A stretch of DNA of 64,000 nt from NCBI RefSeq assembly GCF_003018255.1, contig NZ_CP027440.1; one strand, 5' to 3'. The stretch comes from Escherichia coli (GTDB taxonomy: Bacteria > Pseudomonadota > Gammaproteobacteria > Enterobacterales > Enterobacteriaceae). Both the position numbers and the translations under genes were made by a program. Below are positions 40,395 through 44,738 of this stretch, piece by piece. Numbering within the stretch: the stretch's first letter is position 1; the number at the start of each line of letters is the position of its first letter. Under the pieces are notes generated by a model that saw nothing but the letters and a program-made list of their open reading frames with translations, was not told where the DNA came from and did no database searches.

Positions 40395-40470
40395 TGGCTC
40401 CTCTGACTGGACTCGAACCAGTGACATACGGATTAACAGTCCGCCGTTCTACCGACTGAACTACAGAGGA
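40395..40470 (-). tRNA. asnW: tRNA-Asn (GUU)
   Basis: Reverse complement is identical to the other tRNA-Asn copies. Confidence 0.95.
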
Positions 40471-40570
40471 ATCGTGAGAACGAGGCGAATATTAGCGATG
40501 CCCATCCACAATGTCAAAGCCTGTTTTTTAAATTTGAAATCGTTTGCTGAAATAATCTGCATTTTGTCGT

Positions 40571-42211
40571 TTATTCCGACACAACTGGCTTTTTTTCACA
40601 CTTTTGCGGCTCGGGTCGAGGGTATTTCCACAGCCAACGTCCAGTAACCATTCGCCAGTAAAACAGCACGGCCCGCACAGCCCAGTCGGCAAACATTCCC
40701 ATCCAGACACCAACCACACCCCAGCCAAGCATGATTCCCAGCACATAACCGACTACAACCCGGCAACCCCACATGCTCAACATAGAAACCCACATGGCGT
40801 AACGTGCATCGCGAGCCCCCTTAAATCCAGCGGGTAGCACCCATGAGGCAGACCAAATAGGCATAAATAAAGCATTTAGCCAAATCAGAATCACAACGAC
40901 ATGTTTAACCTGTGGATCCTGGGTGTAAAACGATGCCATAACCCCGGCAAAGGGAGCCGTTAGCCAGGCGATGGCCGTTAATCCAAGAGTGGACAGCCAG
41001 AACACATGCCGCAACTGAATCTCTGCTTGCGCTATCTGCCCTACCCCCAACCTTCGGCCTGTAATGATCGTAGAAGCAGAACCGAGCGCACTTCCGGGTA
41101 AGTTGATAAGAGCCGCAATTGAAAACGCGATAAAATTTCCGGCAATAACACTGGTCCCCATCCCAGCAACGAACATTTGGGTTAATAACCGACCACTGGT
41201 AAATAACACTGATTCGACACTCGCTGGAATACCAATCCCCATGACTTCCCAGATAATGCTAAAATTCAGCGGTTTAAAATAGCTCTTTAACGAAATCCTT
41301 AGCGCAGGATTAAAACCAATCGCCAGCACCCACAAAATTGCCACTGCGCCAATATAACGAGAAATGGTTAAACCCAACCCAGCCCCGACAAATCCCAGTC
41401 CCGGCCAGGAGAAAAGGCCGTAAATCAATATGCCGCTAATAATAATATTAAGAATATTCAGGCTACCGTTAATCAGTAGCGGTATTTTCGTATTCCCTGC
41501 ACCACGAAGTGCCCCGCTACCAATCAAAGTGATGGCAGCTGCTGGATAACTAAGTACCGTCAGCTCCAGATAAGTCAACGCCAGTGCTTTAACTTCTGTC
41601 GTGGCATCACCCGCAACGAAATCAATAATTTGTTCGCCAAAATGATGAATAAGCGTTGCCAACAGCACGGCAAACAACGTCATGATCACCAATGACTGCC
41701 GCGTCGCCACCCTCGCTCGTCGTCGATCCCGCTTACCGAGACTAAATGCCACAACGACAGTAGTACCAAGATCGATAGCTGCAAAAAAAGCCATAATGAC
41801 CATATTGAAGCTGTCCGCCAATCCCACGCCGGCCATCGCATCTTTTCCCAGCCAGCTGACCAGAAAAGTGCTCAGGACACCCATCAACAGGACACAGGCG
41901 TTCTCCATGAAGATAGGAACAGCAAGCGGGGTTATCTCGCGCCAGAACAACACTTTGTAACTCTTGCGTTTGGCGTGCCAGCGAGTGCCGTGAACAACCT
42001 GGCGTAAAGCAGAGGAGATATTCAAAGCCGACCTTAATTGCAGAAAGTGAAACCACATTTCAAATAATGAGGGAGAATTAGCAAAGCTGCAAAGATTTTC
42101 GCCAACAAATTGTCTGCAAATGCAACAAACTGTTGATAGAAACGGCAAACAGTTGGGAAATTTAAAAATCGGGTTTGACAAAAGATTTTTCGCCGTTAAG
42201 ATGTGCCTCAA
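40571..42211 (-). CDS. yeeO: MATE-family efflux transporter
   Basis: 546 aa ORF with 12 predicted TM helices; true start may be internal. Confidence 0.85.
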   Translation of the reverse strand: MRHILTAKNLLSNPIFKFPNCLPFLSTVCCICRQFVGENLCSFANSPSLFEMWFHFLQLRSALNISSALRQVVHGTRWHAKRKSYKVLFWREITPLAVPIFMENACVLLMGVLSTFLVSWLGKDAMAGVGLADSFNMVIMAFFAAIDLGTTVVVAFSLGKRDRRRARVATRQSLVIMTLFAVLLATLIHHFGEQIIDFVAGDATTEVKALALTYLELTVLSYPAAAITLIGSGALRGAGNTKIPLLINGSLNILNIIISGILIYGLFSWPGLGFVGAGLGLTISRYIGAVAILWVLAIGFNPALRISLKSYFKPLNFSIIWEVMGIGIPASVESVLFTSGRLLTQMFVAGMGTSVIAGNFIAFSIAALINLPGSALGSASTIITGRRLGVGQIAQAEIQLRHVFWLSTLGLTAIAWLTAPFAGVMASFYTQDPQVKHVVVILIWLNALFMPIWSASWVLPAGFKGARDARYAMWVSMLSMWGCRVVVGYVLGIMLGWGVVGVWMGMFADWAVRAVLFYWRMVTGRWLWKYPRPEPQKCEKKPVVSE

Positions 42212-42218
42212 CAGCGAT

Positions 42219-42294
42219 TCCTCTGTAGTTCAGTCGGTAGAACGGCGGACTGTTAATCCGTATGTCACTGGTTCGAGTCCAGTCAGAGGAGCCA
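42219..42294 (+). tRNA. asnU: tRNA-Asn (GUU)
   Basis: Identical to asnT sequence. Confidence 0.95.
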
Positions 42295-42302
42295 AATTTC
42301 TG

Positions 42303-42332
42303 AAAAGCCCGCTTTTATAGCGGGCTTTTTGC
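42303..42332. terminator. Bidirectional terminator hairpin between asnU and cbl
   Basis: AAAGCCCGC...GCGGGCTTTTT. Confidence 0.6.
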
Positions 42333-43282
42333 TATATCTGATAATCAATTTCCTCTTCACTGTTCTCCATCACCTGGCGCTTGATATCCTCAACTGACAG
42401 TCCTGCATTACAAAGTTCCAGAAAGCGCCAGACATAGTTACGCTGAAGTTGTCCTCGCTTCAGTCCCAACCAGACAGTATTAGCATCGAAAAGATGCCTC
42501 GTATCCAGACGGATTAAATTCTTTTCCTCTTGTTCACCACTGGATTGTTCGGCAACTAATCCGATCCCCAGCCCAAGAGCAACATAGGTTTTAATGACAT
42601 CAGAATCCTGCGCACTTAATACAATATCTGCCAGCAAACCTTTGCGGGCAAATGCGTCATCAATACGTGAGCGCCCCGTAATCCCCTGTCGGTAAGTGAT
42701 TAACGGCCACTTCGCTATTGATTCCAGCGTCAATGGTGAAATTTGCGTCAAGGGATGATCGTGTGGAACAAGCAAACTATGGTGCCAACGAAACCACGGG
42801 AAGGCGACGAGCTGCGGGTCATTACTCAAACGCTCGCTGGCGATACCAATATCAGCTTCGCCATTTTGCAACAACGTCGCAATTTCCTGTGGTGTACCCT
42901 GGATTAGCTCCAGCCGAACCTCCGGGAAAAGTTCGCGAAAAGCTTTAATGACCTCTGGCAAGCTATAACGTGCCTGAGTATGCGTCGTTGCAATAGTGAG
43001 AACGCCAGACGTATCGTTGGTAAACAGGTCTGCAAGCCGACGAACATTACTGGCTTCATTCAGAATACGTTCTGCAATGACCAGTAATGCTTTGCCCGGT
43101 TCAGTCATGCCCAGCAGTCGCTTACCTCGTCGAACAAATATTTCGATGCCAAGTTCATCCTCCAGTTCCCGAATATGACGGCTAACGCCTGACTGTGAGG
43201 TAAAAAGCATATTCGCAACCTCTGTCAGGTTGTAATCCTGACGTGCAGCCTCGCGGATTATCTTTAGTTGTTGGAAATTCAC
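42332..43282 (-). CDS. cbl: LysR-type regulator of sulfonate utilisation (CysB-like)
   Basis: 316 aa; N-terminal LysR HTH. Confidence 0.9.
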   Translation of the reverse strand: MNFQQLKIIREAARQDYNLTEVANMLFTSQSGVSRHIRELEDELGIEIFVRRGKRLLGMTEPGKALLVIAERILNEASNVRRLADLFTNDTSGVLTIATTHTQARYSLPEVIKAFRELFPEVRLELIQGTPQEIATLLQNGEADIGIASERLSNDPQLVAFPWFRWHHSLLVPHDHPLTQISPLTLESIAKWPLITYRQGITGRSRIDDAFARKGLLADIVLSAQDSDVIKTYVALGLGIGLVAEQSSGEQEEKNLIRLDTRHLFDANTVWLGLKRGQLQRNYVWRFLELCNAGLSVEDIKRQVMENSEEEIDYQI

Positions 43283-43383
43283 GGTAAACTCCGGGCAGTT
43301 CAGATATCCCGTTATTGTTAAAGTCTAATGTCCGGCATAACAAATAATAAAAACCCGCATCTTATTCCATCCCGATATAACGC

Positions 43384-44301
43384 TTAGCTCACCAATTGCC
43401 ACTGCCTTTTTTCCATCACTGGAGAACTCATCACTGACATTAACAACTCTTTCACTGCTTGCGCCTGTGGTGATAAGTTCGCTCTGGCGGGTAAATTTAA
43501 TGACAAAGAGAGACTCATGGAAGGTGTGGTAATGCGTGACATCCACCCGTTTACTGCGCCACATAACGAACGCGCGGCCGATTCGGGTAATACTGCAACG
43601 CCCATGCCGCTGGCAATCGCTGCGGTAAGCGTGGCAATAGACTCAATTTCACCAATGACTTTTGCCGTGAGTCGCCGTAGGGAAAAAGCCTCATCAACAC
43701 GAAGTCTAATAGCACTGTAATCACTGGGGAGAAAGAGGTTCATTTGCGCAATAGCATTAACATCAACGCTTTGCCCCGGGCAATCTTGAGTTCCTACCAG
43801 AAAAAGATCTTCTTTCAGTAAAGCCTGACTGGATACACCAGCCACAGGGGAATGCTCATAAATCACCGCCATATCGAGTTGATGATTTATCAGTTTTTCG
43901 TTAAGTACTGCACCGCTATTTTCATGAAGATAGATAACGACCTCAGGGAATTCAGCGCGAACCGCCTGTAATAAGGGCATGGTGATGGATGACGCAGCGG
44001 TTCCTGGCGCAAAGCCAATCGAGACTTGCCCCGATAATGCCTGACCAACGTTATGCACCGCCAGTTGGGCCTGCTCACACTGACGTAAAATGGCCCGCGC
44101 ATGGGTATAGAGAATTTTTCCGGCGTCAGTTGGCGTAACGCCCCGTTTTGTGCGAATCAAAAGTTGTTGATTTAACTCACCTTCCAGTGTGGCAACCTGC
44201 TGACTGAGCGCTGGTTGTGCGATATGCAATACTTCAGCAGCCTGGGTCAGGCTACCAATATCTACAATTTTTACGAAGTATTTCAGGCGTCTGAAGTTCA
44301 T
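43384..44301 (-). CDS. nac: Nitrogen assimilation control protein (LysR family)
   Basis: Start MNFRRLKYF gives 305 aa. Confidence 0.9.
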   Translation of the reverse strand: MNFRRLKYFVKIVDIGSLTQAAEVLHIAQPALSQQVATLEGELNQQLLIRTKRGVTPTDAGKILYTHARAILRQCEQAQLAVHNVGQALSGQVSIGFAPGTAASSITMPLLQAVRAEFPEVVIYLHENSGAVLNEKLINHQLDMAVIYEHSPVAGVSSQALLKEDLFLVGTQDCPGQSVDVNAIAQMNLFLPSDYSAIRLRVDEAFSLRRLTAKVIGEIESIATLTAAIASGMGVAVLPESAARSLCGAVNGWMSRITTPSMSLSLSLNLPARANLSPQAQAVKELLMSVMSSPVMEKRQWQLVS

Positions 44302-44627
44302 GTTGCCTCCGGTTTTTAAGAATCGGCCCAAGTGCCGCCATTACTTACAACCAGATTGCAAGATGCTTGCCAGTTTTATTTTGGCGTTGATGTACAAGCT
44401 AAGCAACTGTCAAATAAGAGATTATGATAGGTTCGTCATTGGCTCTTTTTATCAGCTGTCGCGTTCCCCTGCCCTATAAAAGGAGGGTATGCACCACGAT
44501 GGTTCATTACCCAATAAGATTGAAAGCTCACCACTTTGTTGAAATTGACAGCAAACAAACAAAAAAATGCATTTCACCCTTTGACATCACCATGCACTGC
44601 CATTAATATGCGCCCCGTTCACACGAT

Positions 44628-44703
44628 TCCTCTGTAGTTCAGTCGGTAGAACGGCGGACTGTTAATCCGTATGTCACTGGTTCGAGTCCAGTCAGAGGAG
44701 CCA
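44628..44703 (+). tRNA. asnV: tRNA-Asn (GUU)
   Basis: Identical to asnT; the upstream leader ATGCGCCCCGTTCACACGATTCC is also shared with asnT. Confidence 0.95.
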
Positions 44704-44709
44704 GATTCA

Positions 44710-44738
44710 AAAAAGCCTGCTTTCTAGCAGGCTTTTTG
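44710..44738. terminator. Terminator hairpin after asnV
   Basis: AAAAGCCTGC...GCAGGCTTTTT. Confidence 0.6.

Follow-up and report, generated by a model that had tools for sequence, protein, structure and literature searches.

The four asparagine tRNA genes asnT, asnW, asnU and asnV were analysed in a 64,000-nt stretch of Escherichia coli DNA (contig NZ_CP027440.1, assembly GCF_003018255.1), which is referred to here as the window. The window very probably contains the ordinary E. coli asn cluster, in which every tRNA gene has its own transcription unit and serves as a landing site for genomic islands and as a substrate for inversion, with neither an island nor a rearrangement present at the locus; nothing in the window spoke against this reading. 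The cluster was found in the K-12 orientation, none of its attachment (att) sites was occupied and no integrase homologue was detected anywhere in the window (tblastn, E ≤ 1e-3). Since the asn sites are empty and the orientation is ancestral, the strain is one without the high-pathogenicity island (HPI) and without pks at the asn locus. The practical result for this ordinary window is negative and no new mechanism is required. The wider relevance of the locus is that the asn tRNA cluster is the site at which the medically important yersiniabactin (HPI/integrative and conjugative element, ICE) and colibactin (pks) islands are acquired in E. coli and Klebsiella.

All four asn genes were 76 nt in length, identical in sequence and encoded the terminal CCA. 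Each had a canonical tRNA fold with the anticodon gtt at position 34 (ARAGORN) and scored 72.6 bits with Rfam RF00005 (gathering score 29); a fifth tRNA-Asn gene was not found by ARAGORN in the window. Probing with the 20 nt at the tRNA 3' end gave exactly four matches in the window, corresponding to the four asn genes (0.01 expected by chance), and no extra att copies or remnants were detected in the window when up to three mismatches to this 20-nt end were allowed. asnW, asnU and asnV together occupy 4,309 bp, with asnT 8.1 kb upstream of them, in agreement with a preliminary description of this DNA, which had noted three identical 76-nt copies within 4.3 kb and a fourth 8 kb away. The same description had the copies alternating in orientation, which was incorrect: the order is −, +, + (asnW, asnU, asnV), with asnW inverted relative to asnU, asnV and asnT, these three being direct repeats of one another. 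It had also placed single genes between the copies, which holds for yeeO, alone between asnW and asnU, but not for the interval between asnU and asnV, which contains both cbl and nac. A leader common to asnT and asnV was confirmed and measures exactly 24 nt, identical from the −10 hexamer (TAATAT) up to the mature tRNA 5' end and giving an identical block of 100 nt outside which the flanks differ. The remaining pairs share identical blocks of 80–86 nt (asnW with asnU 85, with asnV 82 and with asnT 86). The cluster had been drawn to position 44738, which is where the terminator hairpin of asnV (44710–44737) ends, the tRNA itself ending at 44703. The four genes specify the only asparagine tRNA of the E. 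coli cell, and they are presumably kept identical by purifying selection and gene conversion.

Promoter-like sites and candidate terminator hairpins were predicted around all four genes (Table 1). The −35 hexamer TTGACA was invariant across the copies and a G+C-rich stretch followed the −10. The position of the predicted sites, directly before and after each tRNA, is suggestive support and, taken with what is established for the tRNA genes of E. coli, it makes each asn copy likely to be an independent single-gene transcription unit.

The arrangement of the locus in other strains was assessed by megablast searches of 5,426 complete E. coli genomes, 5,424 of which contain the asn locus, with 2-kb probes spanning the junctions. 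A junction was scored as intact if a single place in the genome matched 80% or more of the probe, while inverted and deleted arrangements were probed with synthetic junction sequences. The mtfA-asnT-yeeJ junction was intact in 2,580 of the 5,424 genomes, the yeeN-asnW-yeeO junction in 4,971, the yeeO-asnU-cbl junction in 5,178 and the nac-asnV-ldtA junction in 4,663. Sampled matches to broken asnT junctions ended at probe positions 1013–1021, which is the 3' end of the tRNA; the ∼180 broken asnU and ∼460 broken asnV junctions were counted without assigning individual causes. The preliminary description had proposed the repeats as substrates for inversion, deletion and integrase targeting, and had named complete conservation of synteny in all strains as the outcome that would speak against this; such conservation clearly does not exist. 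These population counts extend descriptions made from smaller collections and document minor types of rearrangement.

Integrase targeting was apparent in other E. coli genomes, where islands with a P4-like tyrosine integrase adjoin the 3' ends of asn tRNA genes, as has already been published. The integrase gene started 160–170 nt past the tRNA in AST216, FHI_NMBU_03, AR13438, MRY15-131, TC24 and JNE151685. HPI (ybt genes, yersiniabactin) was located at asnT in FHI_NMBU_03, the one asnT break that was fetched, and pks (clb genes, colibactin) was located beside an asn tRNA in AST216; AR13438 and MRY15-131 had RHS/toxin-antitoxin islands at asn genes, and TC24 and JNE151685 had other islands. The chromosomal blocks beyond the islands of AR13438 and MRY15-131 begin at window position 32296 and end at 40410, so that 16 nt of the tRNA 3' end are present twice, as expected of an att repeat. 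The last 16–17 nt of the tRNA (CCAGTCAGAGGAGCCA) would serve as the attachment site for the P4-like tyrosine integrases of HPI/ICE, pks and other islands and, as this site is present in every identical asn copy, an island could land at any of them. The basis for integrase-catalysed integration and excision at asn sites is the literature cited in PMC8209727 and PMC6202445.

Insertion of pks at asnW, asnU or asnV has been reported, together with HPI fixed at asnT (Auvray et al. 2021, PMC8209727). The integration sites of ICEKp in Klebsiella pneumoniae are similar to the E. coli cluster in consisting of four closely spaced tRNA-Asn copies that act as alternative sites; ICEKp carries a P4-like integrase and has 17-bp direct repeats on either side (Lam et al. 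2018, PMC6202445). The K. pneumoniae region, compared by its description in PMC6202445, differs in its length of 16.4 kb and in its intervening genes. A further comparison is with the pks/HPI configuration of phylogroup B2 ('1A' in PMC8209727 and 'class Ic' in PMC8461471; Nissle 1917, CFT073 and AST216), which has the same four tRNA-Asn genes and intervening genes, but carries HPI after asnT and pks after the tRNA with the asnW leader and has the 4,309-bp asnW-asnV segment inverted, whereas the window has neither island and is uninverted.

Inversion, the second of the proposed consequences, was found in natural genomes for every oppositely oriented pair of asn copies; that between asnW and asnV has been published before. 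The asnW × asnV inversion (a yeeN-asn-nac junction) was detected in 266 genomes, Nissle 1917 among them, the asnW × asnU inversion, in which yeeO alone is flipped (a yeeN-asn-yeeO(+) junction), in 34 genomes, and the asnT × asnW inversion (an mtfA-asn-yeeN(−) junction) in a single genome, ET5, where the entire block from yeeJ to yeeN is flipped. Breakpoints were situated at tRNA genes in the fetched example of each type, the inverted blocks mapping to window positions 40390–44707 for asnW × asnV and 40390–42299 for asnW × asnU. AST216, the one asnW × asnV example fetched, has the order yeeN-asn(−)-nac(+)-cbl(+)-asn(−)-yeeO(+)-asn(+)-integrase-pks. The same length of 4,309 bp has been published for the asnW-asnV segment, with the inverted orientation found only in the typical pks-positive B2 configuration 1A (PMC8209727), and the same inversion of yeeO-tRNA(Asn)-cbl-gltC was reported by Wami et al. 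(2021; PMC8461471). An asnW/asnV-associated inversion was also detected in cultures of UTI89, the opposite orientation being present in CFT073 (Russell et al. 2019; PMC6458436). Island landing and the behaviour of the asnW-asnV inversion are already known (PMC8209727, PMC8461471, PMC6458436, PMC6202445); the yeeO-only flip, the asnT × asnW inversion, the relocation of cbl-nac and a fossil island end beside asnW (the last two considered below) were found without description in the open-access literature, which was searched non-exhaustively.

A reading in which the asn copies provide gene dosage for translation only, have no structural consequence and appear rearranged in databases through assembly artefacts is very improbable. 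The window itself is unrearranged, as that reading would have it, and NZ_CP196293.1, recorded as a plasmid, is a fragment of the locus, so assemblers do sometimes break at the asn genes. However, long reads are many times the length of a 76–100-nt repeat, the same inversion recurs among hundreds of complete genomes that were assembled independently, Nissle 1917 among them, and it has been detected experimentally in UTI89 cultures (PMC6458436). The inversions were also considered as a programmed switch, with a Fim- or Hin-like invertase regulating yeeO, cbl or nac, and this is extremely unlikely. The suggestion that the asnW/asnV inversion may be 'common and dynamic' (PMC6458436) is compatible with a switch, but the same study found it to be independent of Fim recombinase activity, there is no recombinase gene in or beside the segment, all open reading frames (ORFs) within and around it being assigned to housekeeping genes, and each lineage appears to keep a fixed orientation, with the yeeO-asnU-cbl junction intact in nearly all genomes (5,178/5,424). 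Inversion does not uncouple yeeO, cbl or nac from their promoters, because the promoters move with the genes.

The mechanism of inversion most likely to apply is homologous recombination, with the identical 76–100-nt blocks serving as substrates and a crossover between opposed copies flipping the DNA between them. Such events would be expected to depend on RecA. They would be nearly neutral in function, because a crossover merely swaps the promoter and terminator contexts of identical tRNAs while yeeO, cbl and nac keep their own upstream regions. Both island landing and inversion as a side effect would follow from the identity of the asn copies. Homologous recombination is favoured because inversions were found without an integrase in the fetched locus and because they recur in unrelated backgrounds. 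The yeeO flip was examined in LD27-1, TC24, Santai and PSJ-36. TC24 has an integrase adjoining asnV; the stretches fetched from LD27-1, PSJ-36 and Santai (yeeJ or yeeL to ldtA/cob, which places the 3' side of asnT outside) contained none. PSJ-36, which is inverted, differed from non-inverted K-12 by 0–0.7 substitutions per kb in each of three compared segments, and from other inverted genomes by 3–28 per kb (11–28 per kb from LD27-1 and Santai). The yeeO flip therefore arose independently in at least three unrelated backgrounds, and PSJ-36, its flip aside, is essentially K-12. No integrase was present in the fetched locus of ET5, which ends inside the inverted yeeJ and does not include the asnW-side junction.

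The rival explanation that inversions are made by the P4-like integrases of the islands, acting site-specifically on the 16–17-nt att cores of opposed asn genes, is rather unlikely. A yeeO-asnW-leader tRNA followed by an integrase was found in 365 genomes, ∼263 at high identity (the pks type) and ∼102 at ∼86% identity, and it is the former number that favours site-specific action, being close to the 266 asnW × asnV inversions; the inverted orientation has moreover been found only in pks configuration 1A (PMC8209727). A right-hand asnW × asnV junction without an island was detected only in SE15, where the structure is complex: the cbl-nac-asnU-yeeO block is inverted, no island is present and an extra, partial copy of yeeO adjoins asnW. 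This structure suggests a duplication-inversion or the loss of a former island and, owing to the partial yeeO duplication, SE15 is not a clean island-free test case. The island-free yeeO flips and ET5 argue against the action of an integrase, although one located elsewhere in those genomes could act in trans, and the association with pks could represent one ancestral event inherited by the sequence type (ST) 73 and ST95 lineages. For asnW × asnV the near one-to-one association with pks leaves two other possibilities, recombination of att cores by an integrase and one ancestral event; plain homologous recombination is here inseparable from the work of an integrase or from hitch-hiking with a single successful clone. 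Because the predicted end structures are identical, sequence alone cannot separate the routes of inversion. The direction in which the asnW-asnV segment lies marks the way in which pks was acquired and became fixed.

Some points weigh against the general reading of the cluster as landing sites, inversion substrates and separate transcription units. The 80% coverage rule also scores some sequence variation in yeeJ as a broken asnT junction, the probe containing variable yeeJ; the genomes are clonally related and their counts are not phylogenetically independent; the asnW × asnV inversions (∼263–266) are matched numerically by the pks-type integrase junctions; and the regional total of promoter-like and terminator-like sites was no higher than in shuffled controls.

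Recombination between identical inverted copies of rRNA operons or insertion sequence (IS) elements flips the intervening chromosome in enterobacteria, with repeats of 1–5 kb and segments that are often hundreds of kb. The asn inversions differ in scale, their repeats being only 76–100 nt and their segments 1.9–13 kb.

Deletion, also proposed in the preliminary description, was not borne out, as searches for the asnT-asnV and asnU/asnV junctions gave no clean loss of the DNA between directly repeated copies. The asnT-asnV deletion junction was present in 0 of the 5,426 genomes. A yeeO-asnU-leader tRNA-ldtA junction was detected in 35 genomes and was considered as an asnU/asnV deletion, yet in MRY15-131 cbl-nac had been relocated among the asn copies and not lost: cbl-nac and its asn tRNA were situated 45 kb away, upstream of yeeJ and beside an RHS/PAAR island adjoining it, with a second island between yeeN and asnW. 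AR13438 had the same relocated cbl-nac-tRNA-integrase-island-yeeJ arrangement, again with a second island between yeeN and asnW.

Two genomes had a single match to the tRNA-Asn probes, FHI_NMBU_03, which keeps asnT with HPI, and the O157:H7 strain WS4202. As the probes match in one place only in these genomes, E. coli may tolerate the loss of three of its four asn copies. Recombination between asn copies was rejected as the cause of the loss in WS4202, in which IS1203 lies at a truncation inside yeeJ. A plasmid-borne tRNA-Asn was likewise rejected for the example examined: NZ_CP196293.1, a 5,969-bp linear 'plasmid', is a mislabelled chromosomal fragment (yeeO'-asnU-cbl-nac-asnV-ldtA-cobTS) and probably represents an assembly break at the asn repeats.

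The 3' flank of asnW is homologous to the left end of an asn-targeting island, comprising the spacer between tRNA and integrase and the first few codons of a P4-like integrase (Table 1). It matched the left end of the island in JNE151685 (73% over 201 nt, E = 3e-30, blastn) and the island in MRY15-131 (75% over 153 nt, E = 5e-21, blastn), both of which sit at other asn copies. Integrase residues 4–14 matched positions 40203–40235 weakly (E = 0.09, tblastn) and the homology ended beyond those codons. The flank looks like the remnant of an ancient island insertion from which the integrase and cargo have been deleted, the island belonging to a family that other strains still have in active form, and, lying within the yeeN-asnW-yeeO junction that is conserved in 4,971 genomes, it looks old and species-wide. 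The yeeO flip, ET5, the cbl-nac relocation and this fossil raise the tentative and somewhat doubtful possibility that the asn cluster is a general recombination hotspot that has no need of an island. Were this true, and were the orientations to interconvert within populations, the cluster would amount to a small 'shuffling' locus of natural origin, with 76-nt repeats as its basis.

Table 1. Features of the asn region in the window (coordinates are window positions)
Feature	Position	Strand	Evidence
tRNA-Ser	31155–31244	−	ARAGORN
mtfA, left flank of asnT	31338–32135	+	NCBIfam equivalog MtfA, 541.9 bits; annotated in DETEC-S792
asnT promoter-like site: TTGACA, 17 nt, TAATAT, GC-rich GCGCC discriminator	32189–32217	+	consensus match
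asnT, tRNA-Asn(GTT), encoded CCA	32236–32311	+	ARAGORN, Rfam RF00005, sequence identity
asnT hairpin and U-run, weak terminator candidate	32336–32370	+	RNA fold z = −2.5
yeeN, 3'-side flank of asnW	39226–39942	+	NCBIfam YebC/PmpR family, 351.7 bits; annotation
putative fossil left end of asn-targeting island: tRNA-to-integrase spacer and ∼12–14 P4-like integrase codons	40203–40393 (∼190 nt)	−	blastn, tblastn
asnW predicted terminator hairpin, then T-run	40304–40333	−	z = −6.8 (95-nt flank)
asnW, tRNA-Asn(GTT), sole minus-strand copy	40395–40470	−	ARAGORN, Rfam RF00005, sequence identity
invertible segment asnW-yeeO-asnU-cbl-nac-asnV, 4,309 bp, K-12 orientation	40395–44703		reverse alignment to AST216
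asnW promoter-like site: TTGACA, 17 nt, TAATAT	40489–40517	−	consensus match
yeeO, MATE efflux transporter, flipped in asnW × asnU inversions	40571–42058	−	NCBIfam equivalog, 909.6 bits
asnU promoter-like site: TTGACA, 16 nt, TAAGAT	42175–42202	+	consensus match
asnU, tRNA-Asn(GTT)	42219–42294	+	ARAGORN, Rfam RF00005, sequence identity
asnU predicted terminator hairpin and U-run	42302–42330	+	RNA fold −19.5 kcal/mol, z = −5.4
cbl, LysR/CysB-family regulator	42332–43282	−	NCBIfam equivalog Cbl, 687.4 bits
nac, nitrogen assimilation control regulator (gltC in some papers)	43384–44301	−	NCBIfam equivalog NAC, 599.5 bits
asnV promoter-like site: TTGACA, 17 nt, TAATAT; −10 through leader as in asnT	44581–44609	+	consensus match
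asnV, tRNA-Asn(GTT)	44628–44703	+	ARAGORN, Rfam RF00005, sequence identity
asnV predicted terminator hairpin and U-run	44710–44737	+	z = −4.8
ldtA, 3'-side flank of asnV	44759–45694	−	NCBIfam equivalog L,D-transpeptidase, 695.5 bits

The gene order of the region is mtfA-asnT-yeeJ'-(glycosyltransferase 9)-shiA-amn-yeeN-asnW-yeeO-asnU-cbl-nac-asnV-ldtA-cobTSU. The assignments of mtfA, yeeO, cbl, nac and ldtA were made by NCBIfam equivalog matches above cut-off, and that of yeeN by a match above cut-off to the YebC/PmpR subfamily model. The nearest complete genome was DETEC-S792 (98.7%), and the asn region was collinear with annotated DETEC-S792 and with K-12. Genes, order, orientation and tRNA sequences are those of the K-12 MG1655 asn locus, with collinearity over positions 33397–46000 at 96% identity; the window differs from MG1655 in an internal deletion of yeeJ and in the absence of yodB.

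The yeeJ remnant (32549–34382) lacks 5.3 kb relative to K-12, with the join at position 33398 and two overlapping ORFs left; the same allele is annotated in DETEC-S792 as two pseudogene pieces. yodB, which encodes a cytochrome b, is absent, and between zinT and tRNA-Ser the window has 222 unrelated nt (30486–30707) in place of 995 nt present in K-12. The yeeJ breakpoint is located 1.1 kb, and the yodB replacement 1.5 kb, from asnT. The preliminary description had suggested that the asn repeats may be linked to the rearrangements of this region, and the link was rejected because neither position 33398 nor 30486–30707 is bounded by asn sequences. A prophage integrase adjoins tRNA-Ser beside the yodB position in WS4202 and JNE151685.

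Similarity of the window to DETEC-S792 was mosaic, with one mismatch in ∼3.6 kb (∼42500–46150, from cbl to the start of cobT) and ∼2% divergence on either side. A recombination breakpoint exactly at asnU was considered and rejected, as the switch lies near asnU and not at it (mismatches at 42443–42499). This mosaic similarity indicates tracts of allelic recombination in the region. The shiA-yeeN segment was closest to the B2 strain AST216.

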